A DNA stretch of 61,323 nt from a virus (Duplodnaviria; Caudoviricetes), in the IMG/VR virus record IMGVR_UViG_3300044714_000062, positions 1-61,323 of that record, one strand, 5' to 3'. The position numbers and the translations under genes are program-made. Below, one piece after another: positions 12,549 to 39,077 of the stretch. Numbering within the stretch: the stretch's first letter is position 1; every line of letters starts with the position of its first letter. The notes under the pieces were generated by a model. It was not told where the DNA came from. It made no database searches and saw only the letters and a program-made list of their open reading frames with translations.

Positions 12549-12557
12549 CACACACCC

Positions 12558-15740: not shown

Positions 15741-17791
15741 CTCTTGACTTCGTAGTAGCCGAGCAGGTCCGGGCGGTAGTCGGCTTCGAGTTCGGTCGGG
15801 TCGCCTTCTTGGCCCATGCTGATGACCTTCCCGCCGCCGATGTAGAGCGTCACGTGGAGCGTGTGGGCTTCGCTCGAACCGTAGAAACAGAACGCCCCCG
15901 GTTTGGGGTTGCTGACCTTCTTGCAGTTCGCGATCATCGTCGAGGTGTCGCCGATCGGGGTGTAGTCTTTGTTGGAGGGGTCCGGGAGGCCAGCGGCCTT
16001 GTAGTCGAGCGTGCAGAACGCGGAGCAGTCCATTGTGCGCGGCGATGGTCCGAACAGCGTCCCGTTGTTTTCGCGCGCTGGGATTTCCTCCGTGTACCTG
16101 TAAATGTGTTTTTCCTGCTGTTCTTTCAACGCCTTCTTTGCGGCTTCTACGGCCGAGTTCGCGGAGCCTTCCGCGCCTGGTTCTTTCGCGGTGCTCGTTT
16201 TTTCTGTGGCTTCCGGCTCCGGCAATGGCGCAACCGGGGGCTCCAACGTGAACGTGGTGAACGTGTCTTTGAGACAGTTGCGCGTAGCGTCGGTTACGAT
16301 CCAGCGTTTGTTGATCGGCCCAGACCCCACGAATTCAAAGACATCCCCAGCACGGTAGTCTTCCGGGGCGCACACCAGGTTGAGTTTGATCTCGGATGGT
16401 GTAGATGGTTTGCTAATCCTCGACTTGCGCTGCGTGCGACCTTTCAGAGCATGTGTCGCGCGGTATTCGAAAGCGGTGTTGTCGAAGTTCGCTGTGAGCG
16501 GAACCGCTATCGCCCCGGCCTGCTCAACCTTATGGCCCTTCACATCGCGGTAGACAAGGTTTTCCGGGACGTTCAGGAACAGCGAGACGGCCTGGTCACG
16601 GAGAGAGGGGCCATCCATGTAGAACAGGGTGTCGCCATTGCTGAACGCGAACCACGCGACCTGCTGCGCCAACCGGGTGATGCATTCCCATGAGTCTTCG
16701 TCGGGGTTGCTCGTGCTGCCGCGTTTGAGCTGCTTCACGTCGGATTCCCCTGTGGCCTTCTTGCCGAGCGTTACGCCGCCGTAGGCGTGGACGATCACTT
16801 CCGCCTCAGCCTTGTATGAGTTGAAACCAGCTTCGGTGCCGCCGCCCTCTACTTCAAAGGCGACCTTTCCAGCAGACCACGATGGGTTTTTCTGAGCCAG
16901 CCCTATGCCGCCGCCCCGCCCGTAATAGCCCGTCTCCAGCCAGTATTCTGCCGTGGCCTGTGTGTCCTGCGGGTCAAGGCCGGTATTTTTCGCCGTGTCT
17001 GGTTCAAGCTGGAAGACGCCTTCCGCGTCAGTTTCGGACTTCGCGGTCGGCCTGAAGCTCGATTCCGCTATGGCGGCCTCGACAATCGCGAGCGTTGCGA
17101 GCGGCCCAGCGATCTTGAGGTTGCAAACCCCCATGACGGTGTTGATCGCTTTGATCTGTTCCATGTCGGGCTTCGTGCCCTTGACCGTCACCGCCGATGC
17201 GGCGCTGACCGCCCGCGTCTTGTTGGCTTTCGCCTTCGCGGTTTCAGCGGACGCTTCCGTTTCAAGTTCTCCTTCTACCTTTGTTTCCACTGGCTGCTGC
17301 ACATTTAGTTCGGGGCACACAAACCGGATCGCGGGCTCCTTGCCGGATACCCCCACTTCGTCCACAAGCGCCTTTACGAACTGTGCGCGGGTCGTCGTAC
17401 CCGGTGGCACGTTCCGCCCCCCCCACTTCTTACGCAGCCGCCCGATGATCTTATCCTCAAACGTCAGAATCAAATTGGGTTGCGTCACATCGTTAGTGAT
17501 TTCAATAGCGCAGAGCACCCAAAGCCAACCGGACTTTTCGGGAAATTCAACTTCGATTTCGTCCAGCAACCCTTCTTCCGTCACCTCCAGCCAGCCCGAT
17601 GTCGCCAGCACCCAATATGGGTCGATGCAGTGGACTTTGATGAACGAGGCGCCCGCGATCTGGGTCTCTAGTTCGATCTCGCTAATAGAGCTAGCGAGCT
17701 GCTTAGCATCCGGTGTTTGGCCCTTCGCGGACTTTACCATCGCCGTAGCGACAAAGCTGCTGACGAGCTGGGAGCTTAGGGGTTCGCTCAT
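15737..17791 (-). CDS. Baseplate hub / tail lysin with transglycosylase-like and NlpC/P60 domains
   Basis: AIAESSF..GVFQL; C-terminal DCSAF..HVTLYIGGG. Confidence 0.8.
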   Translation of the reverse strand: MSEPLSSQLVSSFVATAMVKSAKGQTPDAKQLASSISEIELETQIAGASFIKVHCIDPYWVLATSGWLEVTEEGLLDEIEVEFPEKSGWLWVLCAIEITNDVTQPNLILTFEDKIIGRLRKKWGGRNVPPGTTTRAQFVKALVDEVGVSGKEPAIRFVCPELNVQQPVETKVEGELETEASAETAKAKANKTRAVSAASAVTVKGTKPDMEQIKAINTVMGVCNLKIAGPLATLAIVEAAIAESSFRPTAKSETDAEGVFQLEPDTAKNTGLDPQDTQATAEYWLETGYYGRGGGIGLAQKNPSWSAGKVAFEVEGGGTEAGFNSYKAEAEVIVHAYGGVTLGKKATGESDVKQLKRGSTSNPDEDSWECITRLAQQVAWFAFSNGDTLFYMDGPSLRDQAVSLFLNVPENLVYRDVKGHKVEQAGAIAVPLTANFDNTAFEYRATHALKGRTQRKSRISKPSTPSEIKLNLVCAPEDYRAGDVFEFVGSGPINKRWIVTDATRNCLKDTFTTFTLEPPVAPLPEPEATEKTSTAKEPGAEGSANSAVEAAKKALKEQQEKHIYRYTEEIPARENNGTLFGPSPRTMDCSAFCTLDYKAAGLPDPSNKDYTPIGDTSTMIANCKKVSNPKPGAFCFYGSSEAHTLHVTLYIGGGKVISMGQEGDPTELEADYRPDLLGYYEVKS

Positions 17792-21566: not shown

Positions 21567-21988
21567 CAGCCCACAGCCCCATTCGGGCTCACTTTGAGCT
21601 GGAGCTTCGCCTCTTCACTGGTCCCGGCCTTGTAGTTCGGCCGTGTGCAGCCTGTTAGGACCCCCGTGTACGTTTCGACGTACCCCGTGGATGCCTGTTC
21701 GGGGCCGAGCACTGTGTAGCTCACGGTGACGGCCGCAGCGACGACTACCGCCCGGTCGAGAGCCTTCTTGACCCCAGTCATCGCTTCTGACCAGAGGCGC
21801 TCAACGGTGATCGGCGCACGCTTGGCGACACCCCCCAGTGGGATCTGTTCCTGCATCGCGCCGGGGAACACGACTAGTTCCTCGGCGGTGACGTCGCCGC
21901 CCTCCAGCATGTCCCATACTTCGGAGTCGAGGGAGACGCCAGCGACACTTACGTGGATGGCTACCTGGTCCGAGCGAAATATCCTCAT
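21566..21988 (-). CDS. Tail tube protein
   Basis: 140 aa beta-rich protein directly after the sheath gene. Confidence 0.8.
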   Translation of the reverse strand: MRIFRSDQVAIHVSVAGVSLDSEVWDMLEGGDVTAEELVVFPGAMQEQIPLGGVAKRAPITVERLWSEAMTGVKKALDRAVVVAAAVTVSYTVLGPEQASTGYVETYTGVLTGCTRPNYKAGTSEEAKLQLKVSPNGAVG

Positions 21989-23466
21989 TATGCACCCACG
22001 CTTTCTGTGATCGGTGCTGCAACGATGATCTCGCTGAGCGAGTTGACGAACGGCGAGATCCGCACTTTGAGTTCGGCGTTGAGCTGCCCTTCCTGCTCAG
22101 TCGCAGGCGTATTGATCGGTTCCTGCACGTTCGCTACACCGGCTTCAGGGGCCGAGTTGCCGAATAGGGCGTTCTCTTTCCAGTGTTCGGCTATGACGCC
22201 CTGGAGTTCTCCCTGGAGCTTCGAGAGGAGGATGCCGCGCCCGTCGATCGTGCGGCCAAAGAACTTTTCGAGGAGTTCTTCGGACTGCCACACAAGGTGC
22301 ATCCGCTCCCGACCCGCTGACGCCTGCCAGTAAATCTTGTCCGTGGAGGGCAGCAATGCAGTAACGAACCCGTACAAGCACGGGATACCCGATGGTGTCA
22401 CGTACCACGAGTTGATCCCGGCTTCTGAGAGTTCCGTCATCTGCGCCAGCGTGAACGTGTTCGTGAACCCCGTGACGAAGTTGCTGATGCCTCCGGGGCC
22501 ATAGGCGGGAGGAGCCCAGCCGATCCCTATGGGCGCCTGGTTGTCGTTGCCCGTTGCGGCGACCTGCGCGCAGAGAGCGGCGATCACCCCGGACCCTGCG
22601 ATTCTGCGTGTCGTGTTCGCCGTGATGCCGGGCACGATGCACGAGCCGGAGTGGAAAATCATGTACCCCGCGATGTTCGCCGGATAGGATTCTTTCGCGG
22701 TTATCAGGGTGGCAGGGGTCGCGGAGTCCGCGAGGTCGCAGATAGCGAGCCTGTTGTTTTTCGTCGTCTGGCAGTGTTCGCCCATCAGCACATGGATGCC
22801 TTTTTTGACGGGTTCTTTTTCCGTCGCGGGAATCCACACCTGTCCCGGCCCGTAGGTCTTGAGTATCCGTTCGAGGGCTTCTTTCGCCAGGGCTTCGGTG
22901 ATTTCCGTGGCCGGGTTCGTGCCGCCAGTGAGCGCGGCCGCAGCAACAACTTTGAGCGCTTCGCCTTTGCCGGTAGAATATTCCGAACCTTCCGTGACCG
23001 CGATATACTGCGAGGTGACACCCACGAATTCGCTGGCTTTTGTACCTTTGAACGTTTCGAGGACTTCTCCCGCTTCGTTCTGCACGATCAGTTCCGTGGC
23101 GGTCCCTTCAACCTTTAGCTTGTTACCGAGCGTCCCGGTGTACTTCGCTTTCACAACGAGCACTTTCGCGGCACCAGCGGTAGCGAGTTCTTTGCTGGCG
23201 GCAGCAGCCGAGCTTTCTTTCCCGGCGCGCGTGACATATATCTGCGCCATGCCGAGGTTGAACGCAGCCTGTATATCGTCATACATGACGGAACTAGTCG
23301 CGGTGCGTTCCCCGAACACTTCCACGTACCGTGCCAGGCTCTTGACGAGCGTCGGCGTATATGGTCCCGAGTCGGTCAGCCCGATCGGGAAGCCCGTTCC
23401 AGTGGAGATGGAGGTCCCCGCCGACTGGGCCGTCTCACTGGACGACACTTTGATTCCAAACGACAT
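21988..23466 (-). CDS. Tail sheath protein
   Basis: LTDSGP..PTLV.S...Y...FG; AKYTGTLGN; LTGGT; L.EAGIN; C-terminal VRISPF. Confidence 0.9.
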   Translation of the reverse strand: MSFGIKVSSSETAQSAGTSISTGTGFPIGLTDSGPYTPTLVKSLARYVEVFGERTATSSVMYDDIQAAFNLGMAQIYVTRAGKESSAAAASKELATAGAAKVLVVKAKYTGTLGNKLKVEGTATELIVQNEAGEVLETFKGTKASEFVGVTSQYIAVTEGSEYSTGKGEALKVVAAAALTGGTNPATEITEALAKEALERILKTYGPGQVWIPATEKEPVKKGIHVLMGEHCQTTKNNRLAICDLADSATPATLITAKESYPANIAGYMIFHSGSCIVPGITANTTRRIAGSGVIAALCAQVAATGNDNQAPIGIGWAPPAYGPGGISNFVTGFTNTFTLAQMTELSEAGINSWYVTPSGIPCLYGFVTALLPSTDKIYWQASAGRERMHLVWQSEELLEKFFGRTIDGRGILLSKLQGELQGVIAEHWKENALFGNSAPEAGVANVQEPINTPATEQEGQLNAELKVRISPFVNSLSEIIVAAPITESVGA

Positions 23467-24356: not shown

Positions 24357-25325
24357 CTATGCGAGCGATGGGTGACGTCTCGTGGGGCTGAGCATCGCTA
24401 CGACGTGGTACGGCAGCGCGACGTGCGGTAGCTGCTGTTCGGTGTCGGCCTGCGTTTCGCGGCCTCTCCCGGTCGCCTGCGTGGTCATCCACCACCAGCG
24501 GATCGTCTCCCGGGCGGCCCTAGCGACGTTCCGAGGGACCTGTTCCTGGCCGGCCTGATAGACCACATGCACGCTCTGCTGCGGGTGGGAAGGGTCGTGC
24601 CACCAGTTGTATGTACCACCACCGGAGGTGCGACGCACAATGAGGCCGAGTTCGTCGTGCGTCATCTCGCTATAGACGGACCCCTGTGTTGGGGTGGGCA
24701 CGATCGAGAGGTTGTACTCGATGGGACCACGGAACTCGCTGACCGCCAGAACATTCAGCAATGGACTCGTGCCGGGACCGAACGAGGGCTTGTGTCGGAG
24801 GCTGATCGTGCTGTGGCCACCTTCATACCACTCATCGAACGTCTGCGGGATGATTGGCCCTGTGTGCTCTTCGATCAGCGGCTGGACGTCTTCGATGAGC
24901 CCCACGAGCTCCGCGTCGTGAACGCGGTCGTTAGCGGGGAGGTTCAGCGTTTGCTTGACTTCGGGGAGCGACACGATGAGCCGTTCGCCTGGGGTGAGTA
25001 GGCTCTCTTCGATGCTGATCCAGATGTAGCCGACGGTCGGCCAGCGCATTTTCGCGCCGCCGCCAAGTACGACCTCCCATGATGCGGCGAACTCGCCGAC
25101 TATGGCGGTGTCTTTCGCGCTGAACGTGTACGAGACGTTGCCGCCCACGGGTTCAGTGATGGCCGCTACGCCTGTGAGCGTCACCGGGGTCGCAGAAACC
25201 AAGGAGCGCATCACCAGGCTCACCGTGGCGCCGGTCAGGTTCGCCGGCTGCCCATTGGTGTATGTCAGGGTATCTGTGAGGATCGGGCTCGTGTCGTTCT
25301 GTGCGATCGTGAAATCGGGCTGCAT
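24357..25325 (-). CDS. Head-tail adaptor fused to an N-terminal BppU-like Ig domain
   Basis: FTIAQNDT.P..NLTGATV..G.VSY..DT..P..GYI.I.I then VSLPEVKQTL..D.EL..IE..G..V.Y.AG..VP. Confidence 0.75.
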   Translation of the reverse strand: MQPDFTIAQNDTSPILTDTLTYTNGQPANLTGATVSLVMRSLVSATPVTLTGVAAITEPVGGNVSYTFSAKDTAIVGEFAASWEVVLGGGAKMRWPTVGYIWISIEESLLTPGERLIVSLPEVKQTLNLPANDRVHDAELVGLIEDVQPLIEEHTGPIIPQTFDEWYEGGHSTISLRHKPSFGPGTSPLLNVLAVSEFRGPIEYNLSIVPTPTQGSVYSEMTHDELGLIVRRTSGGGTYNWWHDPSHPQQSVHVVYQAGQEQVPRNVARAARETIRWWWMTTQATGRGRETQADTEQQLPHVALPYHVVAMLSPTRRHPSLA

Positions 25326-26956
25326 TAGACCTCCCCAGCGACCGATTCGGGAGACACCAGCCCGGCTAGAACAGGTGTGGCACGGATCTTGAGGCTCCCG
25401 GTACTCGTGGAGTTCGCGGCCTGGAGCAAAACCTGCGTCGGGGCATATAGTGGGAGGGTCGTGAGCCCCGGGTAGAGTTCTTCGCTGGGATACAGGTTTT
25501 CGCTGGGTTGCAGCGCTGGACCGCCAGCTTCGGATACCCCCCCCGCGGGGTTCAGGGCGATATCGGTCGTTGCCGTGTCGGTCAGGCTCCCGCTACTGAC
25601 CCCTACGGCAGCGCTGAGCCCGAGATAAGTGATTGCTGTGACCGCGAGAGCTCCCGTGCTGACCCCAGCGGCGGCATGTAGGTCGATGTGGGCGTTCAGG
25701 AAGAGAGTGCCCGCAGAGACCCCAGCGGCGGCTTCGAGAGGGACCTGTGTCTTGGCGGTGACCCCGAGACTGCCGGTAGTCTGCCCGACCGCGGGTTCTA
25801 GGGCCGTCGCGCCTGTCGTCGTAGCTGTCATCACGCCGCCAGACTGGCCCGCTGCCGCATTCAACGGCACCCCAGCGGTCGTGGTGTCCGTCAGGGACCC
25901 TCCGCTGGTTCCCGCGGCTGCCCCGAGCATGACTTGCGTCGGTGCTGTCGCGGGAAGGCTTGGCTGCCCTGGGTAGAGTTCTTCGCCCGGGTAGAGCCCT
26001 TCTTCGGGTTCGAGACCCGGTCCACCGGCTTCTGAGTGGCCAGCTGCGGCCTGTAGCGCGATCTGGGTAGGTGCCGTGACGGCCACGGATGGCCCACTGG
26101 CTCCCCCTGCGGGCGCAAGCGGCGCTAGGGCTGCTGCTGTGAGCGCGGCGCTTGCAGCACTCGTCCCCGCAGCTGGGTGGAGGTCGAGATGGGCGTCGAG
26201 GAAGATTTCACCGCCGCTGATGCCTGCCGCTACACCCAGGGGCGCGCTCGTGGGGGCTGTGACCGCGAGGCTTCCCCCGCTCGACCCCGCGGCGGGATTC
26301 AACGCTACGGGGATCGGTGCGGGCGCAGCTTGGTACGCGGCGATCAGGCCAGCCCAGGTGCCCGTGCTCGAGAACGAGCCCGTAGCGGTCGCTTTGCTCC
26401 CCGCCGTGGGTGCTAGCAGGTACTCGGCGCCCAGGGAGCCACCGGTCTGGTCGGCGCCCGTCAAGCCCGTCGCACTCCCCCCCGCGGTGAACGTCCCAAG
26501 GGATGCTGTGCTACCGAAGACCCCTACCCATGCGTCGCCTTCAAGGAGGTTCCCCGTCGTCGGGCCTGCCGAGACGGAGGTCCCTATCCCGCTACCGTTG
26601 CCGCTCGTGTCGAACCAGCTCGCGGACTTGACCCCCGAGAACTCGAAGGCCGCGGCCTCAACGACGAGGCTGGCGCCAAAACCGTTGACGCTAATCGACG
26701 TGACACCCGTTTTGGTGATCCTCGCGGAGAAGACCATGACGGTGATCGCTACACCACTCGTGATTTCCGCGTCCAGGTTGTAGGTCGTACCCGAGCTGTC
26801 GGAGCATGACGCGGCCCCTGTGGCCGCTGCGGTCGCGACAGCGACGACCAGGGTATTGCCGACTGCGCCAGCTGTGATTGGGAGCGTGACGGAACCCCCG
26901 CCGAGCGGGCTCGTGGTAGCTATTTGGCCGCTATTGCGGACGAGCGCAATCGACAT
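25325..26956 (-). CDS. Repeat-rich fibre/scaffold protein
   Basis: About 13 repeats of ~21 aa (L..AAG.S.GSL..TA), two LxPxxxLYPxxxLYP inserts, N-terminal beta-sandwich. Confidence 0.7.
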   Translation of the reverse strand: MSIALVRNSGQIATTSPLGGGSVTLPITAGAVGNTLVVAVATAAATGAASCSDSSGTTYNLDAEITSGVAITVMVFSARITKTGVTSISVNGFGASLVVEAAAFEFSGVKSASWFDTSGNGSGIGTSVSAGPTTGNLLEGDAWVGVFGSTASLGTFTAGGSATGLTGADQTGGSLGAEYLLAPTAGSKATATGSFSSTGTWAGLIAAYQAAPAPIPVALNPAAGSSGGSLAVTAPTSAPLGVAAGISGGEIFLDAHLDLHPAAGTSAASAALTAAALAPLAPAGGASGPSVAVTAPTQIALQAAAGHSEAGGPGLEPEEGLYPGEELYPGQPSLPATAPTQVMLGAAAGTSGGSLTDTTTAGVPLNAAAGQSGGVMTATTTGATALEPAVGQTTGSLGVTAKTQVPLEAAAGVSAGTLFLNAHIDLHAAAGVSTGALAVTAITYLGLSAAVGVSSGSLTDTATTDIALNPAGGVSEAGGPALQPSENLYPSEELYPGLTTLPLYAPTQVLLQAANSTSTGSLKIRATPVLAGLVSPESVAGEV

Positions 26957-26981
26957 TGCTCCTCCTCACGCAAAGCGGCAG

Positions 26982-28211
26982 TCACGGGGTGAAAGATTCT
27001 ATCGCTTCGAGGGTCTGCCACGGGAGTTTGGGTACGAAGCTGCCGGAGCCACTAAGTTCCTCGGTGATATGCGGCAGCGCTTTGTCTTCCCATGATTTGG
27101 GTGACCATTCTTTGGCCTGGAAACGCCAGTCTGCTGGGGCGCCATAGGTCGGGTCGATGTCAACCCAGGCGTACGGCGAGCCGATATCGACCTGGCTCTC
27201 CAACGGGATACCGACCCCCCTCGCCCCGATATTGTCGGGGACGAATGCCCCGTGCTTGCGGACCGCTTCGTAGATCGCTTTGGCGATCGTCCCGAGACTC
27301 GCGTATTCGCTCGCGCGTGATTCCTTCGGGAAGGCTAGGAACGTGCCATCGGGTACCGCGTCAACATGAGGATAGGCAGGGTTGGGTTTACCTTCGTATT
27401 CTTCTGAGATCAATGAGTCGTATTTGCCTGCGCCGGAGTCGCTGCGTGTCGCAGGGGAAACCCATCCGGGGCCGGTCACGGGAAGAATGAGCGCGATGGC
27501 GTGGTTGATTTCTCCATCGAGTAGGACGTTGATGATGTCCTGCCACATAATCATCCCGCCGAGCATCGCTAGCGACGAGGCGCGGATACCCCAGTTGTTC
27601 GGCCATACCCCGCTGAATGACGAGAGCCCTTTCAGGTAGCCCCCCCACCGGGCCGTGAACGGCCCCGTTTCTTCAGCGCCGTGCGCTTCGAACTTCCAGA
27701 ACTCCCACATCTCACTCGTGTCGAGGTTGATGATCGTCACGCTTTTATCGGAGTTGTTTGGGTCCGCGATGTGTTTCGCCGCGATAGTCGCCGCCGGGGG
27801 GATGGGGACGGCAGCCCACGTTCTTCCGAGACCGTTGTTTTCCGCTTCGGGGAGTTCTTCCCCCGTTTCGGTGACATGCGCGACCCTTACCTTAGGGACC
27901 GCGCTATTGACGAAATAGAAGGTCGAGGAGGGCGTCGAGAGACCGGAGTAGAAGCGCCCCGTGGATGTGCACCCCGGTATCTTGCCGCCCGTGTACGCGG
28001 ACCCATAGAAGTTGGGGGCCGCTTCCGCGTTGTAGCTGTACGCCGGGTCGGTGTAATGCATCTGGTTGGCGAGCATAAGTGCCAGTTCTTGACTCGCGGC
28101 ACGCGGGGCTTTCGTCATGTCCCGCTGAAAAATGTTGGTCGGCGCGAATAGGCTAATCGGAGTAGCCGCGGACACGCCGAACGCACTTCCGCTGAAGAGG
28201 AGCGAGCTCAT
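26982..28211 (-). CDS. Globular enzyme-like protein of unknown function, probably virion accessory
   Basis: VPIP..D..IIN..WEFWK..G.RASSL..LGG..INHAI..PATRSD..P.G..IYEA..KHG.F.D; no signal peptide. Confidence 0.6.
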   Translation of the reverse strand: MSSLLFSGSAFGVSAATPISLFAPTNIFQRDMTKAPRAASQELALMLANQMHYTDPAYSYNAEAAPNFYGSAYTGGKIPGCTSTGRFYSGLSTPSSTFYFVNSAVPKVRVAHVTETGEELPEAENNGLGRTWAAVPIPPAATIAAKHIADPNNSDKSVTIINLDTSEMWEFWKFEAHGAEETGPFTARWGGYLKGLSSFSGVWPNNWGIRASSLAMLGGMIMWQDIINVLLDGEINHAIALILPVTGPGWVSPATRSDSGAGKYDSLISEEYEGKPNPAYPHVDAVPDGTFLAFPKESRASEYASLGTIAKAIYEAVRKHGAFVPDNIGARGVGIPLESQVDIGSPYAWVDIDPTYGAPADWRFQAKEWSPKSWEDKALPHITEELSGSGSFVPKLPWQTLEAIESFTP

Positions 28212-29320
28212 TATGCGAAGCCCATACGAGGGAGCAGAAATTTACCGCCCACTTCCAAGGCTGCAGGAGTCACGGGCGAAGGAAGTGAGCTAGGTATCGT
28301 CTGGCCTGTATTTCCTAGCGCAGCGGTCCGAGGGGATTGGATCTGCAAGTTGTTCTGGATTTCCCGGCTGTACAGTGAGATGCAGGTCCCGGACGTCACA
28401 ACCTCGCACAGAACCGCGTAAAGCAATTCAGGAGCCGACCCCGATTCAATTTGGCTTTCTAGCTTCAAGGCGCATGGCGTATTGGCTTTCAACGGTACAT
28501 TTGTCGCTGAAGTAAAGTCAGCGCTGTGCCCGAGCAATTCATATTTGGCGTTGAGTACAGCGACCCACAGGTGGGTTCGTTTGGTTGGTTCAGTCTCCAG
28601 GGCATCCACAGCGAAAACTACGGCATTGATTTTCGTTTTAGGCGATGTAGGAATCGCCGCCAACACGGGAGTGCCGCTCGGGACCGCCAGGGCGGTGATC
28701 GCAGCAGCTCGCGGGCTCGCAGCATCGTTGTTCGCGACCTCCGCCCGTTCTTCGTTCGTTCCGGCTTCGGGGGTTGTATAGGTTTTAACGGCAGACAATC
28801 GCAGCAATACAAGAGGATTGAAGCCTTCGGACCCCGTTTCTCCCTTTTCGCCCCTCGGTGAGCACAGGATCGCCCAATGGGCACCCCCGTCCATCGTGAG
28901 GAGCACATAGGTGTTCTGTTCGTTCGGCCCCGTGTTAGTCGCAGGGAGAGGCCCGTTGAGGACCGTGAAGGCGTTGGATACCGCGATAGCGTGACCACCC
29001 GCGGCGTTCTGGGTGACCTTCGCGAGCACGACACTCGTTTCCGGCCTGGCGCCCGTCGGGGGCACCAGCGTGACGGCACCCTTGGCGACGTAGGTATGGT
29101 TCTCGACGTAGGTTGTCCCTTCGGTGAGTGACGGGGAGATTTCCCCTTCGACTTCGCCGTGTGATTTGGTGAGGCCGGTATCCACCGAACTCGGCAGCGG
29201 TATCGCCCCGCTAGTCACCTGCGCGGCCAAAGCTTCTTCGGCGGCATTCAGGTTCTGCCGGTCGAGCGCGGTCGGTTCCGGTTCACCTTTGTTTTTCCAC
29301 GGGAAGACGGAAAGCGCCAT
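28211..29320 (-). CDS. Accessory fibre protein (anchor + short collagen-like stretch + beta domain)
   Basis: N-terminal WKN..TALDRQNLNAAEEAL; GEKGETGSEG. Confidence 0.65.
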   Translation of the reverse strand: MALSVFPWKNKGEPEPTALDRQNLNAAEEALAAQVTSGAIPLPSSVDTGLTKSHGEVEGEISPSLTEGTTYVENHTYVAKGAVTLVPPTGARPETSVVLAKVTQNAAGGHAIAVSNAFTVLNGPLPATNTGPNEQNTYVLLTMDGGAHWAILCSPRGEKGETGSEGFNPLVLLRLSAVKTYTTPEAGTNEERAEVANNDAASPRAAAITALAVPSGTPVLAAIPTSPKTKINAVVFAVDALETEPTKRTHLWVAVLNAKYELLGHSADFTSATNVPLKANTPCALKLESQIESGSAPELLYAVLCEVVTSGTCISLYSREIQNNLQIQSPRTAALGNTGQTIPSSLPSPVTPAALEVGGKFLLPRMGFA

Positions 29321-29324
29321 CGGG

Positions 29325-29741
29325 TTACACCAAGGTCAGGGAGAGAACTTCCGCCGCAATAGACGCCGGGGTCTGAGTAGTCGAGATCACCGTGGATGCG
29401 GCGGTCCCCCACATGATGACGTTCCCTTTGCCCGTTTCTTTATTGTCGCACACCGCCCACGCGATGATCGTCGAAGTGCCCCCGGTACAGGCGGCAAACG
29501 TAAAGGCTTCTTTGTTGTTGATCGAACTCGGCGTCCCAGCGACAGCGGAGTTCAACACCGACGCTGGAACTTCCTTGCGGGCATACCCCGTGTAGGTCGC
29601 CTCTGTGATCGTGGCACCCGTGTTGCTGTTAGTCGGTACCACGGTTAGCAACGCCAGCCACATCACGGGCAGTGTGAGTTCTTTCTTCCCCGACACATGT
29701 TCAAGGGTTTTTGTCGCGTACGCTTGGCTGAAACCCGACAT
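29325..29741 (-). CDS. Small Ig-like virion fibre subunit
   Basis: WLAL.T..P..TEA.Y.GYAR..N..FTF..I..WAVCD..GN..WG pattern seen in phage neck/head-fibre modules. Confidence 0.7.
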   Translation of the reverse strand: MSGFSQAYATKTLEHVSGKKELTLPVMWLALLTVVPTNSNTGATITEATYTGYARKEVPASVLNSAVAGTPSSINNKEAFTFAACTGGTSTIIAWAVCDNKETGKGNVIMWGTAASTVISTTQTPASIAAEVLSLTLV

Positions 29742-29744
29742 TGC

Positions 29745-30089
29745 CTAGCCTCCGATTCCGATTTGTACAGGCCCAGGGGTCTGTTCATGGTCCGCCAGTG
29801 CTGGCGCCCCAAGGGCATCCAAGCCGGCCTCTGTCATCTTCCACCGGCCATCCGTCTCCTCCGCCAGACCCCTCTCTCGCAGCCCCCCTAGGAAGGCTGC
29901 TACCTGGTCTTCGGTGCGCCCCGGGATACTCCGATCTCCCAGCAGTCGCGCCGTCAGCTCCCCCACGCTGTACGAGCGGACGCTCTCCTTCGCTCCGCCA
30001 TCAAGCTCCGCCCGGATAAAAGCCTCCTCGTCCGCAGCCCAGACGGGGAGATGACCCAGGACCCGACGCTCGGTATCCGATGCGAACAT
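29745..30089 (-). CDS. Winged-helix-like hypothetical protein
   Basis: L..L.ERGLA..DGRW.MTEAG. Confidence 0.55.
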   Translation of the reverse strand: MFASDTERRVLGHLPVWAADEEAFIRAELDGGAKESVRSYSVGELTARLLGDRSIPGRTEDQVAAFLGGLRERGLAEETDGRWKMTEAGLDALGAPALADHEQTPGPVQIGIGG

Positions 30090-31049: not shown

Positions 31050-31715
31050 CTACTTGAGGAACACGACAGGCGCGGCGGCCTGGAGCGTGAACGTTTCCAG
31101 TTTCGCCGGGGCCGTACCGGTTGCCGAGAGCGCCGTTTTGAAGCACGGCAGCGGGGCACCCGAGAACCACGGGTAGTGTTTCGCCCCGGACGACGCTTTG
31201 GTCAGCGCCGTAGCCGCCGTTTCGATCGTTGCCAGCCCAGGGACGGCCGTGGATGCCACCGCGTACAGTGACACGTACAGCCACCCATGCGGTGCGTTCC
31301 CGGGTTCGACCAGGACGGGTTTTTCGAGTTCCGCTTCATATGTTTCCGTTTTCCCGATTAGCGTTGCACCCGTAGCGTCTTTGCTCTGGGCCAACAGCGC
31401 GGGGAGGGTCGTGTCTTCCCCGGACACCAATGTGGAGAGTCCGGAGTACAGGGCGACGAAAAAGTGTTCGCCGCCTTCCGTGGATGCCGAGGTCGAACGA
31501 ACCCCGATCTTGTTGATTTCCACCCCATACGGAAGGGCGATCGGGACCGTTGTGATTTCAGCCGTTTTCAACGCGGCAGCAGTCGCAACCATCGCGCTAC
31601 CGGGTGCAGCATTTGTCCACATCGGGACATCGCTCTGCGCGATGTTATTCTGCTGCCCCCAAATGCTCCACAGGGGGTTCTGCTGCGGAAACCGTCCGCT
31701 GACGAGATCAGACAT
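31050..31715 (-). CDS. Capsid decoration-like protein
   Basis: Own RBS (AAGGAG) right after the capsid stop; beta-rich; VALY..LLAQS resembles the C-terminal domain of 28211-29320. Confidence 0.6.
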   Translation of the reverse strand: MSDLVSGRFPQQNPLWSIWGQQNNIAQSDVPMWTNAAPGSAMVATAAALKTAEITTVPIALPYGVEINKIGVRSTSASTEGGEHFFVALYSGLSTLVSGEDTTLPALLAQSKDATGATLIGKTETYEAELEKPVLVEPGNAPHGWLYVSLYAVASTAVPGLATIETAATALTKASSGAKHYPWFSGAPLPCFKTALSATGTAPAKLETFTLQAAAPVVFLK

Positions 31716-31725
31716 GTCTTCTCCT

Positions 31726-33480
31726 TTAGAAGGCGTAGCCGCCGAGGGTCGGTTCGGTCGGGGCAGCCGAGAAAGACGTGCCCACCTTGAACGGTTTCCC
31801 GCCAGCGAACTGCAACGACGGGCCATAACGCACCAGCAGCGCAATGTACGCATACACCTGGAACCGGATCTGCAATGTGCCGGACACGACCTCGGGCAGC
31901 ACCCGGGCGCGGAGGTCCGACTCGAAGAACCAGATGTCATCGAACTTCGCTGTCAGGCAGTACGAGAACAGTTCGGAGCCCGATGTGATGAGGGCTTCCA
32001 CTGCTTTGTTCGCTGCCGCGATGATGCTCGCGGAGCTGCCGGTCGCTGTGCTGTTCGCGGACGGCAGGATCGGCGGGATGTTCGCCGACTGGTACACCGA
32101 CGGCCCGAGCGGGGTTTTCAACAGGAACCCCTCAGCTTCCGTGTCCGCCGCGAGCTCACCCGCAATATTGAAGTTCGGGAAGTCCGAGGCGTTGACGAGC
32201 AGCCGTCCCTTTTCCGATTCGGTGTCCGTCGCCGACGCGAGGTACGCGCCGAACGCCGGGTTGATGACATGGTGGACGTTCTGGACGTTGAAGCGTTCCT
32301 TAGCGATATGCGACCAGTTGGCGCCCATCGCAGCGAACATCACCTGCGGTGTGAGAGCCGACGTGGATTCCCTGCGGCCCGCTTTCCATTCGTTCGCCCC
32401 GGCGCCAACCGAGGGGAACAGTCCCCGGATGGTGCCGGCGTTCAGGGTCGTGTAGTTCAGGCCCTGCCCGTAGGACACGTTCTGGTCGAGCTTCAGGTGG
32501 TAGTCCGCCAGCAGGTCTTCCTGGACGACACGGTCGAACACCTGGCCGGGAGACTGCTCGATCAACTGGATCGCTACGTCCTCCTGGCCCGCCAACGTCT
32601 TCACGGCAGCTTCGACGTATTCCGATTCGATGTCCCGTGAGGCGACCCCGGCGTTATCCGCGAGCTGCGGTGCGACTTCCGCGCCGAGCTTGATCTTCGG
32701 AAGTTTGATCGTGTCCGTCCCCAACGGCACCGGCATATTGCGGCACAGGGGGGCAATGACACGCCCAGCACGAAGCGCCGGAATGAAATCGTCCTCCACG
32801 AGCCACAATGGCGGCACGAATTCCCCGCCGGAGCCGGGGGCACGCGACGGGTTGGCGCGCTGTTCAAACGCCCGACGCTCAAACGGAGAGGTCGTCAGAT
32901 CGCCACTGAGGCCGAGACTGGTTCGGAACTCACGCTCCGCGGCCTGGAGCTGGTCTTCCGCCGCGCGCTGTGCTGCTTTCTCGCGCTTCTCGACGGTCTC
33001 CTCCATCATCTTGCCGTGCCGCTCGCGCCGTTCGTCCGCCGCAGCCCAACCGCCGTCCGGCTGGAACCGGCCCCGCAGACTGTTCTCCGAGCCGATCAGG
33101 TCGCGGAAGAAGCTGACCTCGTGCGCGTTGTCCTTGCGATACACCATCGGCTCCGAGATAACTTCCGCGTCGATGGTGTGCGCGTCCGCAACCTTGCGGC
33201 GCTCCGCGCGTTTCTGGAGAGTGTCGATTCGCTCGTTGATCGCTTTGTCCTGGCGATCGAACTCGCGGCTTTCTGTTTTGAACTCTTCCTCGGCGGCGTT
33301 GTAAGCGTCGCGCTCCTCCTCGGAGGGCCGCTCGTCGTCCTTCTCTGCTTTCATCCGCTCGTCGAACTCGACGCGCTCCTTCTCGCGGCTGTCGATCAGC
33401 TCATCCCATTTCGTGCTGATCTCCGCACGCTGGTCTTTGAGCCCATCGAGAACCGTAGGCTCCGCTGTTACTGTAGCCAT
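31726..33480 (-). CDS. Major capsid protein, HK97 fold, with N-terminal scaffold (delta) domain
   Basis: Charged coiled-coil N-terminus; GGEFVPP; IKLPK; KTLAG...VAIQLIEQS; RFQVYAY. Confidence 0.92.
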   Translation of the reverse strand: MATVTAEPTVLDGLKDQRAEISTKWDELIDSREKERVEFDERMKAEKDDERPSEEERDAYNAAEEEFKTESREFDRQDKAINERIDTLQKRAERRKVADAHTIDAEVISEPMVYRKDNAHEVSFFRDLIGSENSLRGRFQPDGGWAAADERRERHGKMMEETVEKREKAAQRAAEDQLQAAEREFRTSLGLSGDLTTSPFERRAFEQRANPSRAPGSGGEFVPPLWLVEDDFIPALRAGRVIAPLCRNMPVPLGTDTIKLPKIKLGAEVAPQLADNAGVASRDIESEYVEAAVKTLAGQEDVAIQLIEQSPGQVFDRVVQEDLLADYHLKLDQNVSYGQGLNYTTLNAGTIRGLFPSVGAGANEWKAGRRESTSALTPQVMFAAMGANWSHIAKERFNVQNVHHVINPAFGAYLASATDTESEKGRLLVNASDFPNFNIAGELAADTEAEGFLLKTPLGPSVYQSANIPPILPSANSTATGSSASIIAAANKAVEALITSGSELFSYCLTAKFDDIWFFESDLRARVLPEVVSGTLQIRFQVYAYIALLVRYGPSLQFAGGKPFKVGTSFSAAPTEPTLGGYAF

Positions 33481-33605: not shown

Positions 33606-34787
33606 CTATGATTCGGCTTCGACGAGCGATACGCTCGCGTTGTTGTTGTCCCAGACATTGCCCGACCAGATGAAGTTTGCACCCGATGGGCAATAGGACG
33701 GTTCGCTTACGGTCGGGCAGCCCCAGATACTTTGCGAGCCGCCGCGCGGGAAATAGCCATATTCATCGAATCCTTGATTCCATTTGCCGGTGTTCGCGCC
33801 TTTGCAGAGGTAGTCACCCCCCGAGGTTCCTTCGGCACCGAGGCAGCGAGCAAAACGGTTGCCTCTGATGACCGCCGTAGAAGTACCAGCGCCGCTGCTC
33901 TTGACTTTCCCGCACATCGAGAACTGCTCTTTCGCGCCAGCGACCAGGCTTTCTTCGACGGTCATGTGGTCTTTGCACGCCGGTTTCGTTTCTTCGTTGG
34001 TGTTCAGGAAGATGATCGCGACGTTGTTTTCGGGGTTCAGCAGCGTGTCCTTCTTCGCGACCACCGAGGTTTCGTTGGCGTACCAGTCCTCGCGGTGCTG
34101 CGACGCATCCGGGAGATCGGCGTTCGCGAGGATATAGCTTTCCTTCGCTTCCGCTTCGCCCAACAGGCACTCGACGCAGGACCGGAAGACGTCTTTGGTG
34201 ACTTTGAGGTTCGAGTCGCCCCCGCTGAGGTTTTCGCCCTTCACGCCGTCATCGATATATTCGGTGTTCTGGTGAACACCTTCGACCGTGGAGTTTTCCA
34301 GTGTGAAGACCGTCGTGCCGAGGATCTGGATGACCGCCGTCCCGTCTTTCGGGACATCCGCCTTGAGGCAGTCCTTGTTGAACAGCCACCCGCTGCCCTG
34401 ATTTTCCAGGTACACCGAGCCGCCTTCGGGGACCGAAATGTCCTTTTCTTTGACTTCTTTATGGCTCCCCAAGTAGCTTTCGAGTTCCACGAGGGTCATG
34501 CTCGCCAGTTCGGAGCATTTCTTCCCCGTGGCTGCTTCGGCCCCCACGTTTTCAGGGGACGGGAACGCCCCGCCGGCGAGCGGGCCACTCGTACAGCCAG
34601 TGAGGCGTGTGGTGCCTTCCGTTTCGGGGTTCTCGAAGCATCCAGTGTGCGTCGTTTTGACGACGGGGTTACAGACCCCATGGGCGCCCACCACGCACGG
34701 TCCGGGGTTGACTACATCCCCATATCGCTTCCTCGCCGCACACCCCGATAGGCCGACCAGGATGGCTAGCAGTATCACCCAGCGCAT
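33606..34787 (-). CDS. Lipoprotein with right-handed beta-helix (polysaccharide lyase/hydrolase-like)
   Basis: Lipobox LSGC; stacked beta repeats (LENSTV, VEESLV, IRGNRF, WSGNVWD). Confidence 0.65.
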   Translation of the reverse strand: MRWVILLAILVGLSGCAARKRYGDVVNPGPCVVGAHGVCNPVVKTTHTGCFENPETEGTTRLTGCTSGPLAGGAFPSPENVGAEAATGKKCSELASMTLVELESYLGSHKEVKEKDISVPEGGSVYLENQGSGWLFNKDCLKADVPKDGTAVIQILGTTVFTLENSTVEGVHQNTEYIDDGVKGENLSGGDSNLKVTKDVFRSCVECLLGEAEAKESYILANADLPDASQHREDWYANETSVVAKKDTLLNPENNVAIIFLNTNEETKPACKDHMTVEESLVAGAKEQFSMCGKVKSSGAGTSTAVIRGNRFARCLGAEGTSGGDYLCKGANTGKWNQGFDEYGYFPRGGSQSIWGCPTVSEPSYCPSGANFIWSGNVWDNNNASVSLVEAES

Positions 34788-35086
34788 CAGACCTCTACGA
34801 CCGTCAGCGTGCTATTGCTAGAAGCAATCGCAGTAACGGAGCCCGTCCAGACCATGGGGCCTATCATTCCGTTCCAAGAGCCGCCTTCCTTGGCGATCAG
34901 AATCCCTTCTTCTGCTTTAGCCGTTTTACCTAGCCCGAGGTAGATCGCGTTAGAAGAAATATTGACGAACTGGCACCCGTTGCGGTTTTCGTTCGCTTTT
35001 AGGACTTCTTTACTCGCGGATTCTACGACAAAGGTATTCGGGCTCGACGTCGTTACTTCACTAATCCTGTCACCTACTTGGGGCAT
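34787..35086 (-). CDS. Small jelly-roll-like virion protein
   Basis: VL.AN.NR....VN....IYLG....GI pattern; coupled to the second capsid gene. Confidence 0.6.
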   Translation of the reverse strand: MPQVGDRISEVTTSSPNTFVVESASKEVLKANENRNGCQFVNISSNAIYLGLGKTAKAEEGILIAKEGGSWNGMIGPMVWTGSVTAIASSNSTLTVVEV

Positions 35087-36285
35087 CACTTGAACCCTTC
35101 TACTGGCGTCATGCCAGTACCGACAAGCTTGGAGACACCCGAAGGGTACCGGCCGAGGATCGCCGCAACAGTCCTGCGCAAAGCGAACCGCACTTCCAGG
35201 GTTCCCGAGAGCACATCCGACTCGATCATCGTGACGGGCGCCGAGTCGAACAACACCATGTCCTTCGGGCGCAGCGCGAAGATCGCATCCTGTTCTTTGG
35301 TAGCGCCGTACACGGGCTGGATCGCATCATCCAGGTACACGCCGACGCTCGCAAAGCCCGCATTAGGAAAGTCGGAGTCAGGATAGTCTTCAATACTCAG
35401 CGGCCGGTTCGAGTTATCCTCAGAGGTCGCTAGCCAGAAGAAGCGGCTCGTGTTCACCACAAGCGCTTCCGGTGGTTTGCGGCGTTTCACACCGACCTGG
35501 GCGAGGATTTCGCCGATCTTCGGGACCATCGCGGTCCCCGTGGGCGACCCGCTCGTGTACACAACTTCGTTCGTCCCGGAGAGTTCGATGAGGCCATACC
35601 ATTCTTCGTATTTAGGCCCCAGCCCGTTGATAAACGCTTTCTCCACATCGAAGTCAGACGACTCGAACATGTCTTTGAAGACCACCCAGTCCAGGTGAGC
35701 GCCAATCGGGGACTGCTCCAGGCTCTCGATAGGCCAGTCCGAGATACCCGCAAAGATCACCGCGGGGGACGATGCCGCTTCTGTCGTGAACCCTAAGCTA
35801 TCCACCGGAGAGTTCGGGACCTGTGTACTGACCGTTGAGCCCGTGATGACCCTCGGCAGGTTCACCGACGACACGCCCCTCGGCAGGTCGAACGTCGGGA
35901 TTAGGCGCTGCAATACGGGGCTCGACCGGCGAGCCGTCGCGAACATCTCGTTCACCCACCACGGCGGGGCGAACTCGCCGCCATATCCGATCTTCAAAGA
36001 CGGGTTCACGCGGTACTCGAACTCCGCGCCCTCCAAGCTCCGCGTCTCGTACTTCGGCATCGCGTCCATCTGGCGCCCATGCTGCGCCAGGCGCTCCCGG
36101 GCGGCCGTGTTGCCGCCATAGCGCGGTTCAGCCAGCGCCAGGTCAGACAGGTAGCTGCGGCCGTCGAACTGGTACACCAAGGGCTCCCGGACATGGCGGT
36201 GCGCGTTCGCCTCCGCGGTCTCCGCAAGGGCGCGCTCCTCCTGGGTGGGCTGCTCCTGTAGACGCTCAGCGGTTGTGGTCTCCAT
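35086..36285 (-). CDS. Second HK97-fold capsid paralogue
   Basis: EPLVY, NPS..GYGGEFAPPWW, VNLPRV, AG..D..IE.LEQSP, VLSGTLEVRF are collinear with 31726-33480. Confidence 0.88.
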   Translation of the reverse strand: METTTAERLQEQPTQEERALAETAEANAHRHVREPLVYQFDGRSYLSDLALAEPRYGGNTAARERLAQHGRQMDAMPKYETRSLEGAEFEYRVNPSLKIGYGGEFAPPWWVNEMFATARRSSPVLQRLIPTFDLPRGVSSVNLPRVITGSTVSTQVPNSPVDSLGFTTEAASSPAVIFAGISDWPIESLEQSPIGAHLDWVVFKDMFESSDFDVEKAFINGLGPKYEEWYGLIELSGTNEVVYTSGSPTGTAMVPKIGEILAQVGVKRRKPPEALVVNTSRFFWLATSEDNSNRPLSIEDYPDSDFPNAGFASVGVYLDDAIQPVYGATKEQDAIFALRPKDMVLFDSAPVTMIESDVLSGTLEVRFALRRTVAAILGRYPSGVSKLVGTGMTPVEGFK

Positions 36286-36494
36286 CACTCCCCCTCCGTC
36301 TGGCGTATGCAGAGCATGATCGGCTCGCCATTCCTCGGGCACGGGCACCAGTGGGTCATCGGCGGTTCGCCGTCCTCTAACTCCAGCGGGAAGGTCAGCG
36401 GTTTGAAGGTCAAGCCCTCGTGACCGTCGCCGTGACACCGCGCGCACCCTTTGATGCTCGTTTTGATGGGCTCGGGCAGCTTGATCGCCTCCAT
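36285..36494 (-). CDS. Small zinc-finger protein
   Basis: CARCHGDGH...WCPCP. Confidence 0.55.
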   Translation of the reverse strand: MEAIKLPEPIKTSIKGCARCHGDGHEGLTFKPLTFPLELEDGEPPMTHWCPCPRNGEPIMLCIRQTEGE

Positions 36495-37681
36495 CACGCG
36501 GCCCTCGCTATCGCTTTCGCCCTACGCGCCCGCTCGGCCTCCACGCCCGTCGGGATCAAGACCGCCAGCGGGTCCGCTGTGAGCGGCGGCGTGGGGTCGG
36601 GCTCGTCGGGGGCGCCAAGAATGTCATCGATTTCGCCCTTGATCGCTTCGAGTTTCTGTTTCTTCGCGTTACTGAGGGCTTTCCCGATGCGGTCCTCGTC
36701 GATCCGCAGCTCGAACGCGCCGGCATCGGAGCGCATCGTGATGGTGCCCGACGTGTCCGCGTTCGCGCCGTGCGTGACCATGCTCACGTCGCCCTTATGG
36801 ATCGTCGCGGCCCGTACGACACGTTTGCGGTCACCGTCCGTCCAATCGTCGTCGGTGGCCTTGAACGCGAAGCTCATTTCCGTCAGGTCGCCGCGTTTCA
36901 TCTTCGGCACCAACGCCTGCACATCCGGGTCGGATGGATCGAGGTCCGCGTCCACTTTCAGGCCACGGGTGTCTTCGCTCAACGTCATCGTGCCCGAGCG
37001 AGTCCTAGCTAGCGGGAGTCCTTCGTGGTTGATGAGCAGCACCACGTCCGGGTCTTCGCCCAAGCAGCGCCGGAACGCCCCCCGTGCGAAGGTCTCCTCG
37101 AACCGGCCGACCATGTACGGGATCTCCGTCGTGCTCGCGTACCCCGAGAACCGCAGCCCACCATCGGACGTTTCGCGGATCTCGACTTCGGCTGTGAAGT
37201 CGCGGCGCTCGACGGTACCCTCGATGCTTTCCCGGACACGCTTACGGCGCTCCAGCTCCGCATCGTCTGCCGAGTTGTGCTGTTGGCCGCCAGCTTCGAC
37301 TTCCCCGGTCCCTTCGCACGTTTCGCAGGTAGCGTCGTCCGTCCCGTCGCCCCCGCATGTCGGGCAGACCTCCATGCCAGGCTTGAGTACGCGCGTCTCG
37401 GCGTCGGTCTCGGCCGCACGCCAGCTTTCGGGGAGGCTTGCTGTCGCCTTCAACGCCTCAGCACGCCCCTTGATGTACGCCTTCACCGCGTCACGCACAG
37501 CATCCGGGGCTCGCCCGAGTGCCTGCACGGCGTTCGAGAGGTCGGCGGTGTCCGCGATCGGGAAGCTGTAATGGCCGTCCGGGTTTTTGTACGCCTTCCC
37601 TTCCTTGCCGAGCGTTTCGACCTGCGCGTCGGTGTACTTGGCGCGTAGCTCTGCCTCTGCGCGTATCTCATCATCGGACAT
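36494..37681 (-). CDS. HK97-family prohead protease with extra N-terminal domain and Zn finger
   Basis: GYAST, F.E.F..GAF, LINH..LART, EMSFAF, DVSMVTHGA. Confidence 0.9.
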   Translation of the reverse strand: MSDDEIRAEAELRAKYTDAQVETLGKEGKAYKNPDGHYSFPIADTADLSNAVQALGRAPDAVRDAVKAYIKGRAEALKATASLPESWRAAETDAETRVLKPGMEVCPTCGGDGTDDATCETCEGTGEVEAGGQQHNSADDAELERRKRVRESIEGTVERRDFTAEVEIRETSDGGLRFSGYASTTEIPYMVGRFEETFARGAFRRCLGEDPDVVLLINHEGLPLARTRSGTMTLSEDTRGLKVDADLDPSDPDVQALVPKMKRGDLTEMSFAFKATDDDWTDGDRKRVVRAATIHKGDVSMVTHGANADTSGTITMRSDAGAFELRIDEDRIGKALSNAKKQKLEAIKGEIDDILGAPDEPDPTPPLTADPLAVLIPTGVEAERARRAKAIARAA

Positions 37682-37688
37682 TTGCACC

Positions 37689-39035: not shown

Positions 39036-39077
39036 CACCCCCTCGGGGTAGACTTAGGGGATGGATCAAACGGCCAA

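Follow-up and report, generated by a model that had tools for sequence, protein, structure and literature searches.

The window analysed here, the whole 61,323-bp stretch of IMG/VR record IMGVR_UViG_3300044714_000062, is an entire virus record with direct terminal repeats and is a complete 61-kb myophage genome. Comparative analysis indicates that the genes from 29745 to 24357 on its minus strand probably encode a chain-like neck fibre of the type seen in GP4 Fiber-1 and in the collar-whisker complex of Bas63. Its central components would be a 138-amino acid (aa) link protein of the Gp80 family and a 543-aa repeat protein, the candidate rope on which the links are strung. Homology and synteny give such a fibre good support; the design is already known from other phages and is not new here. 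The original prediction for this region had pictured a strand-donating scaffold, rooted at the neck through an immunoglobulin (Ig)-like domain and displaying docked enzymes and fibres. The core of this picture matches the solved design of GP4, Bas63, Sf14 and A1002, and its central inference is a correct rediscovery, since that design had already been solved, including at the necks of myophages; the docking and display layer found no support. All five adjacent open reading frames (ORFs) that had been proposed were located on the minus strand and are listed here with the regions distinguished within them.

29325-29741, minus strand: 138-aa ORF, Gp80-family link (bead or whisker) protein, PF23140
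28211-29320, minus strand: 369-aa ORF, fibre-like protein, conserved over an N-terminal segment of about 45 aa and variable in the rest
26982-28211, minus strand: 409-aa ORF, uncharacterised family, probably carbohydrate-active
25325-26956, minus strand: 543-aa ORF, candidate rope
26312-26956, minus strand: N-terminal globular region of the candidate rope, residues 1-215, conserved in seven homologues
25361-26311, minus strand: repeat region of the candidate rope, residues 216-532, 13 units of about 21 aa that may dock copies of the 138-aa protein in series
25967-26014, minus strand: LYP insert 1, residues 315-330, in repeat 5
25466-25513, minus strand: LYP insert 2, residues 482-497, in repeat 12
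24357-25325, minus strand: 322-aa ORF, adaptor
24990-25325, minus strand: BppU_N-like Ig-type domain, adaptor residues 1-112, candidate collar or anchor of the rope
24357-24989, minus strand: head-to-tail adaptor domain, residues 113-322 plus the stop codon

The 138-aa protein is placed in the Gp80 family of link proteins

Profile comparisons show that the 138-aa protein belongs to the Gp80 family. It matched PF23140, which carries the Pfam name 'Podophage GP4 fiber I protein gp80', with 56 bits (cut-off 27, E 6.6e-15) over profile positions 2-127 of 128, and with 55.3 bits in the genome-wide search. At E<=1e-3 the protein has 635 relatives, and PF23140 was found in 120 of 120 among the matches listed. 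The single sequence retrieved nothing useful from the Protein Data Bank (PDB). A profile built from 27 relatives matched chain a of 8JOU, which is gp80 of GP4, over residues 1-111 (E 5e-6); this entry holds 10 gp80 chains and was the sole match, so that the Bas63 whisker was not found by the family profile in the PDB.

Gp80-family genes are followed by genes with a 20-22-aa repeat period

A gene with repeats of 20-22-aa period comes after the Gp80-family gene in nearly all cases. We collected 41 viral loci via the 138-aa family and scored BLOSUM62 autocorrelation in all of their ORFs. A locus was counted as positive when a same-strand ORF of at least 150 aa, starting no more than 4.3 kb downstream of the Gp80-like gene, had a 20-22-aa periodicity of at least 1.0, and upstream same-strand ORFs (n=390) served as the control. 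A periodic ORF was found downstream in 34 of the 41 viral loci versus 6 of the 390 control ORFs. The independent cases are fewer than 41 because several loci are near-duplicates (L003/L004, L010-L012 and L023/L024). The same feature was seen in all four loci from metagenome-assembled genomes (MAGs), which come from four phyla (the MAGs are labelled Solirubrobacteraceae, Binatia, Phycisphaerae and Chloroflexi). GP4 itself fits the pattern: gp79 (325 aa), encoded by the gene after gp80, has a 20-aa periodicity with a z of 7.0 and 0 of 300 shuffles as high, and none of nine gp79 neighbours tested had its best lag at 20-22. We infer that gp79 is the GP4 rope.

The candidate ropes are diverse in sequence among themselves and keep their period. 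A hidden Markov model (HMM) of the repeats matched the downstream ORFs of 10 loci (L002-L005, L010-L012, L020, L029 and L033), and the estimated repeat number ranges from about 6 to about 43. A kept period, a divergent sequence and a varying repeat number together form the pattern expected of a spacer that is limited only by the size of its partner. Very long candidate ropes, 2,005-2,296 aa in length and made up of about 40 repeats of 20 aa each, were observed in L017 (12953-19840), L028 (12841-18855) and L032 (2131-8316). If each repeat binds one subunit, these three fibres would be several times longer than any that has been solved.

The 543-aa protein has 13 repeats and a duplicated seven-unit block

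The 13 repeats of about 21 aa that had been read from the 543-aa protein were confirmed. The units begin at residues 216, 239, 259, 280, 301, 344, 365, 386, 407, 426, 447, 468 and 511, and the periodicity at lags of 20-22 was 1.37, beyond that of all 300 shuffles (mean 0.15, standard deviation 0.14, maximum 0.62; z 8.6). The duplication of a seven-unit block was equally clear. Residues 239-376 and 406-543 gave a gapless alignment with 69 of 138 positions identical, and the unit-to-unit score peaked solely at offset 7 (54.2; the remaining offsets between 1 and 9 gave 13.7-22.8). The sequence FLxAHxDLH stands at residues 252 and 419, and this spacing of 167 aa is equal to that of the two LYP inserts.

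In seven close homologues the N-terminal region is nearly invariant and holds most of the invariant columns, and the number of repeats differs. The globular domains found in ropes differ from one another and are placed before or between the repeats. A PF12138 Spherulin4 domain is fused N-terminally in the homologue P0125, and Laminin_G_3 lectin-like domains are present in the ropes of L019 (10417-13107) and L037 (4466-8134). The occurrence of these domains suggests a role in glycan binding or cleavage for the rope's free end.

The repeats might instead fold on their own. The 543-aa protein would then be an autonomous trimeric beta-spiral or beta-helix fibre with a globular head, and the 138-aa protein would bind elsewhere as a capsid or neck decoration. 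The repeats are rich in Ala, Gly, Ser and Thr and in this resemble many fibre shafts; the gene lies between capsid and neck genes, where genes for head fibres and decoration proteins also occur; and a tblastn search of a phage collection with the 138-aa protein returned three weak records, with one match annotated 'head protein'. The AlphaFold 2 (AF2) model of the 543-aa protein, made from an 8-row alignment, had a mean predicted local distance difference test (pLDDT) score of 31 and is too poor to exclude self-folding repeats, and a phmmer search of the protein against the PDB gave 0 hits. Complex prediction with four copies of the 138-aa protein and residues 333-430 of the 543-aa protein scored 0.47, 0.37 and 0.34, with controls at 0.00, 0.26 and 0.00, which weighs neither way. 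Three points argue against a self-folding shaft. Periodic genes are linked to Gp80-family genes family-wide, with the period kept and the repeat sequence divergent; the repeat number varies freely between close relatives; and in the solved structures, as far as the published descriptions reach, the rope is an extended chain without a fold of its own. We consider an autonomous fibre unlikely.

The 322-aa protein joins an Ig-type domain to a head-to-tail adaptor

The extra Ig domain that had been noted on the adaptor is present: the AF2 model of the 322-aa protein (pLDDT 87.7) separates an N-terminal Ig-type domain from an adaptor domain, and both have fold matches. The C-terminal part is identified as a head-to-tail adaptor by its family HMM, its fold and its gene position. 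PF05135 (Phage_connect_1, gp6-like) matched 6 of 60 family members with a best E of 2e-8; the 322-aa protein itself had no PF05135 match. In VIA-align the best match was the neck of a gene transfer agent (6toa_D, Z 12.1, 163 residues aligned), and six further neck or portal-complex entries reached Z 9.2-11.2, including those of Mycofy1 (9lw9_C, Z 11.2), the phage 812 neck (8q01_b, Z 11.1) and the T5 portal complex (9ilp_a, Z 10.5). In gene order it stands two places upstream of the sheath gene.

Residues 1-114 are closest in fold to the BppU type. The TP901-1 baseplate protein 4v96_AL gave Z 10.7 (root-mean-square deviation 2.7, 107 residues aligned; Foldseek E 2.5e-7), followed by 80alpha 6v8i_AK (Z 9.8), another BppU-type domain (Z 9.4) and 3uh8 (Z 9.0), over an Ig background of about 8. 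Pfam PF10651 (BppU_N) matched the 322-aa protein with 19.6 bits, under the cut-off of 23.1, and 19 of 60 relatives at E<=0.01. Neck chains of phages with known collars followed at Z 8.5 (Sf14, 9c39_J) and Z 8.3 (the Bas63 connector, 9mt4_H), in each case with their residues 69/70-166. A BLASTP comparison of the 322-aa protein with GP4 gp77 found nothing. Neither Foldseek nor VIA-align has 8JOU in its list of 50 entries for the 322-aa model, which is no proof of different folds.

The gene context ties the Ig-type domain to the rope. An HMM of the N-domain located it in the ORF that directly follows the rope ORF in 14 of the 41 viral loci. Ten of these loci have it in a short ORF of about 110-230 aa; the domain forms the start of a 309-aa ORF in L020, and L002-L004 have it fused to the adaptor, like the window. 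The domain thus travels with the rope, like gp77 in GP4, and the order of link, rope and Ig-type domain in the loci mirrors the order gp80, gp79, gp78, gp77 of GP4.

A rope-and-link fibre could also be real and be rooted elsewhere, on a capsid vertex, a head-completion protein, the terminator or the sheath, with the extra domain of the adaptor bracing the neck or holding the 369-aa fibre. BppU_N domains of TP901-1 and 80alpha anchor receptor-binding proteins at baseplates, which would fit such a different role. The likeness of the N-domain to known collars is at the generic Ig level, the window has no Gp77-family member, and the GP4 fibre is described as docking on the capsid as well. Against a different root stands the position of the domain, which follows the rope in those 14 loci with or without fusion to the adaptor and so appears tied to the rope rather than to the adaptor. 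We regard rooting elsewhere as quite unlikely.

A model for the neck fibre and its stoichiometry

Rope-and-bead fibres are known from few cryo-EM structures, those reported being of GP4, VP1, A1002, Sf14 and Bas63. Dimers of small link proteins are strung on a rope polypeptide in GP4, A1002, Bas63 and Sf14 (PMC12609058, PMC13730344), and in GP4, Bas63 and Sf14 an Ig-like collar at the neck is described as holding the rope. In Bas63, whisker dimers wrap the rope domain of the collar 'such as beads on a string', with the incomplete beta-sandwiches of the whiskers being completed by the rope; the whiskers are structural homologues of GP4 Fiber-1, and the authors hold the two complexes to be homologous (PMC12609058). 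Twelve Ig-like collar proteins are found at the interface of adaptor and head-completion proteins in Bas63 and Sf14 (PMC12609058). GP4 is reported to have an independent rope protein with five dimers, interlocked with an Ig-like collar, and its fibre-tail adaptor gp77, an Ig-like protein of 93 aa, forms a 15-mer ring around the adaptor (PMC13730344, PMC11445570). A1002 has 11 dimers in augmented beta-sheets with the rope (PMC13730344).

In the neck fibre that we favour for the window, the 543-aa protein would be the rope, and each of its 13 repeats would supply a beta-strand that fits into the groove of a single 138-aa subunit. A rope would thereby carry about 13 subunits (6-7 dimers), and the repeat number would set the length of the fibre. 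The BppU_N-like domain that the dodecameric head-tail adaptor carries in this clade as an N-terminal fusion would hold the rope at the neck, and the N-terminal globular domain of the rope would be its free end. This polarity is a guess, made because one homologue has an enzyme domain at the N-terminal end and other ropes have lectin-like domains. The fibre would probably serve to attach the phage reversibly to polysaccharide of the cell surface, to brace the head-tail joint, or to do both, functions suggested before for GP4 and Bas63.

We take about 13 subunits per rope to be the likeliest number and 13 dimers to be the alternative, because a value of about 20 aa per subunit fits GP4 and Bas63, and the residues of the A1002 fibre dock, as published, correspond to about 24-30 aa per dimer. 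In GP4, gp79 has 10-11 units by our own reading for the 10 chains in 8JOU, and in Bas63 four monomers are served by a rope domain whose length, as judged from a structure match, is about 69 residues.

Several observations weigh against the proposed fibre, and the A1002 value is one of them. The 13 units and the seven-unit block are odd numbers for a fibre built of dimers. No significant match was obtained between the 543-aa protein and GP4 gp79 by BLASTP, the repeat HMM does not reach gp79, and gp79 is absent from the PDB sequences. Seven of the 41 loci fell below the periodicity threshold: four of these (L006, L009, L040 and L042) have less than 3 kb of downstream sequence, L025 has a periodic ORF (period 20, 1.72) that was left out by the start filter, and L031 (0.86) and L036 (0.49) stayed under the threshold of 1.0. 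As for the collar, antibody domains reach Z 7.7-8.2 against the N-domain, on par with the Sf14 and Bas63 neck chains, so that the likeness to these necks is not distinctive. A profile of the Ig domain found no relative in the PDB, and PF23148, the Gp77 collar family, which GP4 gp77 matches with 85.9 bits, had no match at E<=10 in a six-frame search of the whole record.

Comparison with known neck and tail fibres

GP4 Fiber-1 (8JOU) is like the window in that the link proteins share a Pfam family and are detectable by profile, the rope is encoded separately with a periodicity of about 20 aa in the gene after the link gene, and an Ig-type domain gene lies downstream of the rope. The two differ in that GP4 is described as a Ralstonia podophage with five fibres of five dimers, whereas the window is a myophage with 13 repeats. 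The window has no Gp77-family protein and has a BppU_N-like domain fused to the adaptor instead. The two ropes have no sequence similarity, and that of the window has a conserved 215-aa N-terminal domain and LYP inserts.

The felixounavirus myophages Bas63 and Sf14 (9mt4, 9c39) are contractile-tailed like the window and, as described, have twelve Ig-like collar domains at the level of the adaptor and beads-on-a-string whisker dimers completed by a rope strand, which the proposed fibre would resemble. In the published account the Bas63 collar protein is extended at its N-terminus by a short rope that carries two dimers, whereas the window has a separate 543-aa rope protein, and the Bas63 collar is a separate protein linked to the adaptor, whereas the Ig-type domain of the window lies within the adaptor chain. 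The Pseudomonas podophage A1002 (nozzle-rope gp39, gp40/gp41 dimers) is reported to have a long rope with many serial docking sites, 11 dimers over about 300 A, beta-sheet augmentation and a globular Ig-like domain on the rope. Its rope is fused to the nozzle, its fibres wrap the tail tube and it has two link paralogues, again as reported; the window has one link gene, and its rope gene adjoins the adaptor gene.

Two other systems share single features. The Anabaena myophage A-1(L) bears bead-chain-like fibres on its neck, but these consist of head-to-tail trimers (gp82, about 14 gp81 and gp80) on a gp5 pentadecamer and have neither a rope nor Gp80-family dimers. The N-terminal domain of TP901-1 BppU and ORF48 (4v96, 3uh8) has the fold that residues 1-114 of the 322-aa protein match best; BppU belongs to a siphophage baseplate, whereas the window domain is fused to a neck head-tail adaptor. 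What would be variant in the window is a separate long rope in a myophage and a collar-type domain fused to the adaptor, and further the LYP inserts, the inserted fibre and enzyme genes and a conserved winged-helix-like neighbour.

LYP inserts and the proposed docking of fibres and enzymes

The motif LxPxExLYPxEELYPG was found in units 5 and 12, as had been proposed, at residues 315-330 and 482-497 (LYP at 321/327 and 488/494). The DNA of the insert 1 region has a tandem repeat of period 18 at 25966-26002. Of the 13 invariant columns in residues 216-543 (alignment A2), 5 fall in residues 311-335, and because it is so unusually conserved the first insert probably has a specific role, as a hinge, a collar lock or a socket. 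The second insert is absent from three of the seven homologues (P0122-P0124).

In the original prediction both inserts were sockets for the N-terminal anchors of trimeric 369-aa and 492-aa proteins, the whole forming a branched modular display. The high conservation of the first insert within the repeat region would fit this, as would the 369-aa protein, whose N-terminal segment is conserved and whose distal parts are swapped in L002 and L003. The inserts and the 369-aa anchor also occur in the same phages: there are two inserts in the window, two in L002, one in L003 and none in 12 other ropes examined, and the anchor motif is found only in the window and L002-L004. This co-occurrence is confined to one close clade (the window, L002 and L003/L004), is inseparable from shared ancestry and so says little. 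The common anchor itself was not recovered, as the best BLASTP match between the N-termini of the 369-aa and 492-aa proteins was 7 of 7 residues with an E of 2.9, which is not significant. The number of inserts does not follow that of candidate cargo genes, L002 having two inserts and one fibre and L003 one insert and one fibre, and the inserts are equally explicable as hinges or as a segment that locks the collar. Docking of anchor-bearing trimers at the inserts thus found no support, and neither did the display of enzymes on the filament. The 492-aa gene (11073-12551, minus strand) stands in the baseplate block. We consider the full display model highly improbable.

A narrower version would have the LYP inserts as sockets for the conserved N-terminal 45 residues of the 369-aa fibre and perhaps for the 409-aa enzyme, giving a branched neck fibre with cargo that is exchangeable as gene cassettes; this we regard as very unlikely. 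More modestly, the inserts might lock the rope into the Ig-type domain of the adaptor, with arms running up and down from the neck.

Genes that accompany the link and rope genes

No Pfam or PHROG family was matched by the 369-aa protein. Its N-terminal 40-46 aa are 87% identical to those of a 743-aa protein in L002 and 67.5% identical to those of a 763-aa protein in L003, both of which occupy the same position as the 369-aa gene, and the rest differs. A conserved start with a differing remainder would be the usual pattern of a fibre with a fixed attachment end. The Atlas leads from the 369-aa protein to phage fibre families were all <0.9 and are leads only. A similarity of its C-terminal part to a 221-aa ORF (31050-31715) was rejected (E 0.88).

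The 409-aa protein had been called enzyme-like, and for this the support is indirect. Its family has 446 relatives at E<=1e-3; the core has no Pfam family, and a profile found no relative in the PDB. Among 52 aligned family members, Malectin, CBM_6, CBM60, CBM_35_2 and CBM_5_12 domains occur in one member each and Big_7 in two. Because some members carry carbohydrate-binding modules, the 409-aa protein is probably a carbohydrate-active enzyme, and the family, in which P138, D155, H237, P253 and G321 are invariant, may be an undescribed family of such enzymes. L002 and L003 have no 409-aa homologue, and we therefore place the 369-aa and 409-aa genes outside the conserved module, as lineage-specific insertions.

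The small 114-aa protein encoded beside the link gene is a conserved neighbour in this family. With an iterated HMM, a relative of it was found adjoining the Gp80-like gene, on either side, in 32 of the 41 viral loci and in the window (examples are L005 9540-9836 and L037 4230-4475). The protein has an N-terminal F.SD.HRRVLG motif, and the family has weak winged helix-turn-helix matches only (Pfam HTH_45 matched 3 of 18 members, and the best E of a PDB profile search was 0.025). No such protein is described in the available portions of the GP4, Bas63 and A1002 accounts. It could be an assembly factor or a further component of the fibre.

Genome context

All structural genes of the window are carried on the minus strand. 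The rows below list them 5' to 3' in transcription order, from the portal to the tail and baseplate.

37689-39038, minus strand: portal, phrog_12
36494-37750, minus strand: protease
35086-36447 and 31726-33480, minus strand: two capsid-like genes, phrog_2263
between the capsid-like genes and the five-gene block, minus strand: several small genes
29745-30089, minus strand: 114-aa small protein with a weak winged-helix-like resemblance, neighbour of the Gp80-family gene
24357-29741, minus strand: the five-gene block
between the adaptor gene and the sheath gene, minus strand: 224-aa gene
21988-23466, minus strand: sheath, phrog_23, E 1.4e-15
12558-13799, minus strand: Baseplate_J gene
11073-12551, minus strand: 492-aa gene, between the Baseplate_J and Tail_P2_I genes
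9921-11072, minus strand: Tail_P2_I gene

The sheath, Baseplate_J and Tail_P2_I genes mark the phage as a myophage with a contractile tail. Among cultured phages, no nucleotide match to the five-gene region was found. The capsid protein of the window is about 30% identical to capsid proteins of Mycobacterium phages, which makes an actinobacterial host a reasonable guess. GC content across the window is 0.58-0.70, and no tRNA genes were found in its 61,323 bp. The 492-aa protein had no Pfam, PHROG or PDB match, and its earlier GH-A label rests on short motifs only.

Two further features of the structural region were observed. The phrog_2263 'major head protein' family was matched twice, by 31726-33480 (E 9.8e-27) and 35086-36447 (E 1.5e-12), and a 393-aa gene without a family lies between these two capsid-like genes, at 33606-34787. 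In the tail module, a 684-aa protein (15737-17791, minus strand) has SLT transglycosylase and NlpC/P60 peptidase domains together and is probably a virion-associated cell-wall hydrolase.

Implications

The window leaves the known working of rope-and-bead fibres unchanged, and it extends their range and adds testable predictions. We suggest as a genomic signature a PF23140 gene with a nearby gene that has about 6 to 43 repeats of 20-22-aa period, often with a gene for a BppU_N-like Ig domain right after the rope and with a small winged-helix-like gene beside the link gene. This signature is present in viral contigs and in MAGs of four phyla. Fusion of the collar to the head-tail adaptor would be a new way of mounting a collar, and the copy number of the collar would then equal that of the dodecameric adaptor. 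If the rule of one strand per subunit is true, the length of such fibres could be read from sequence.

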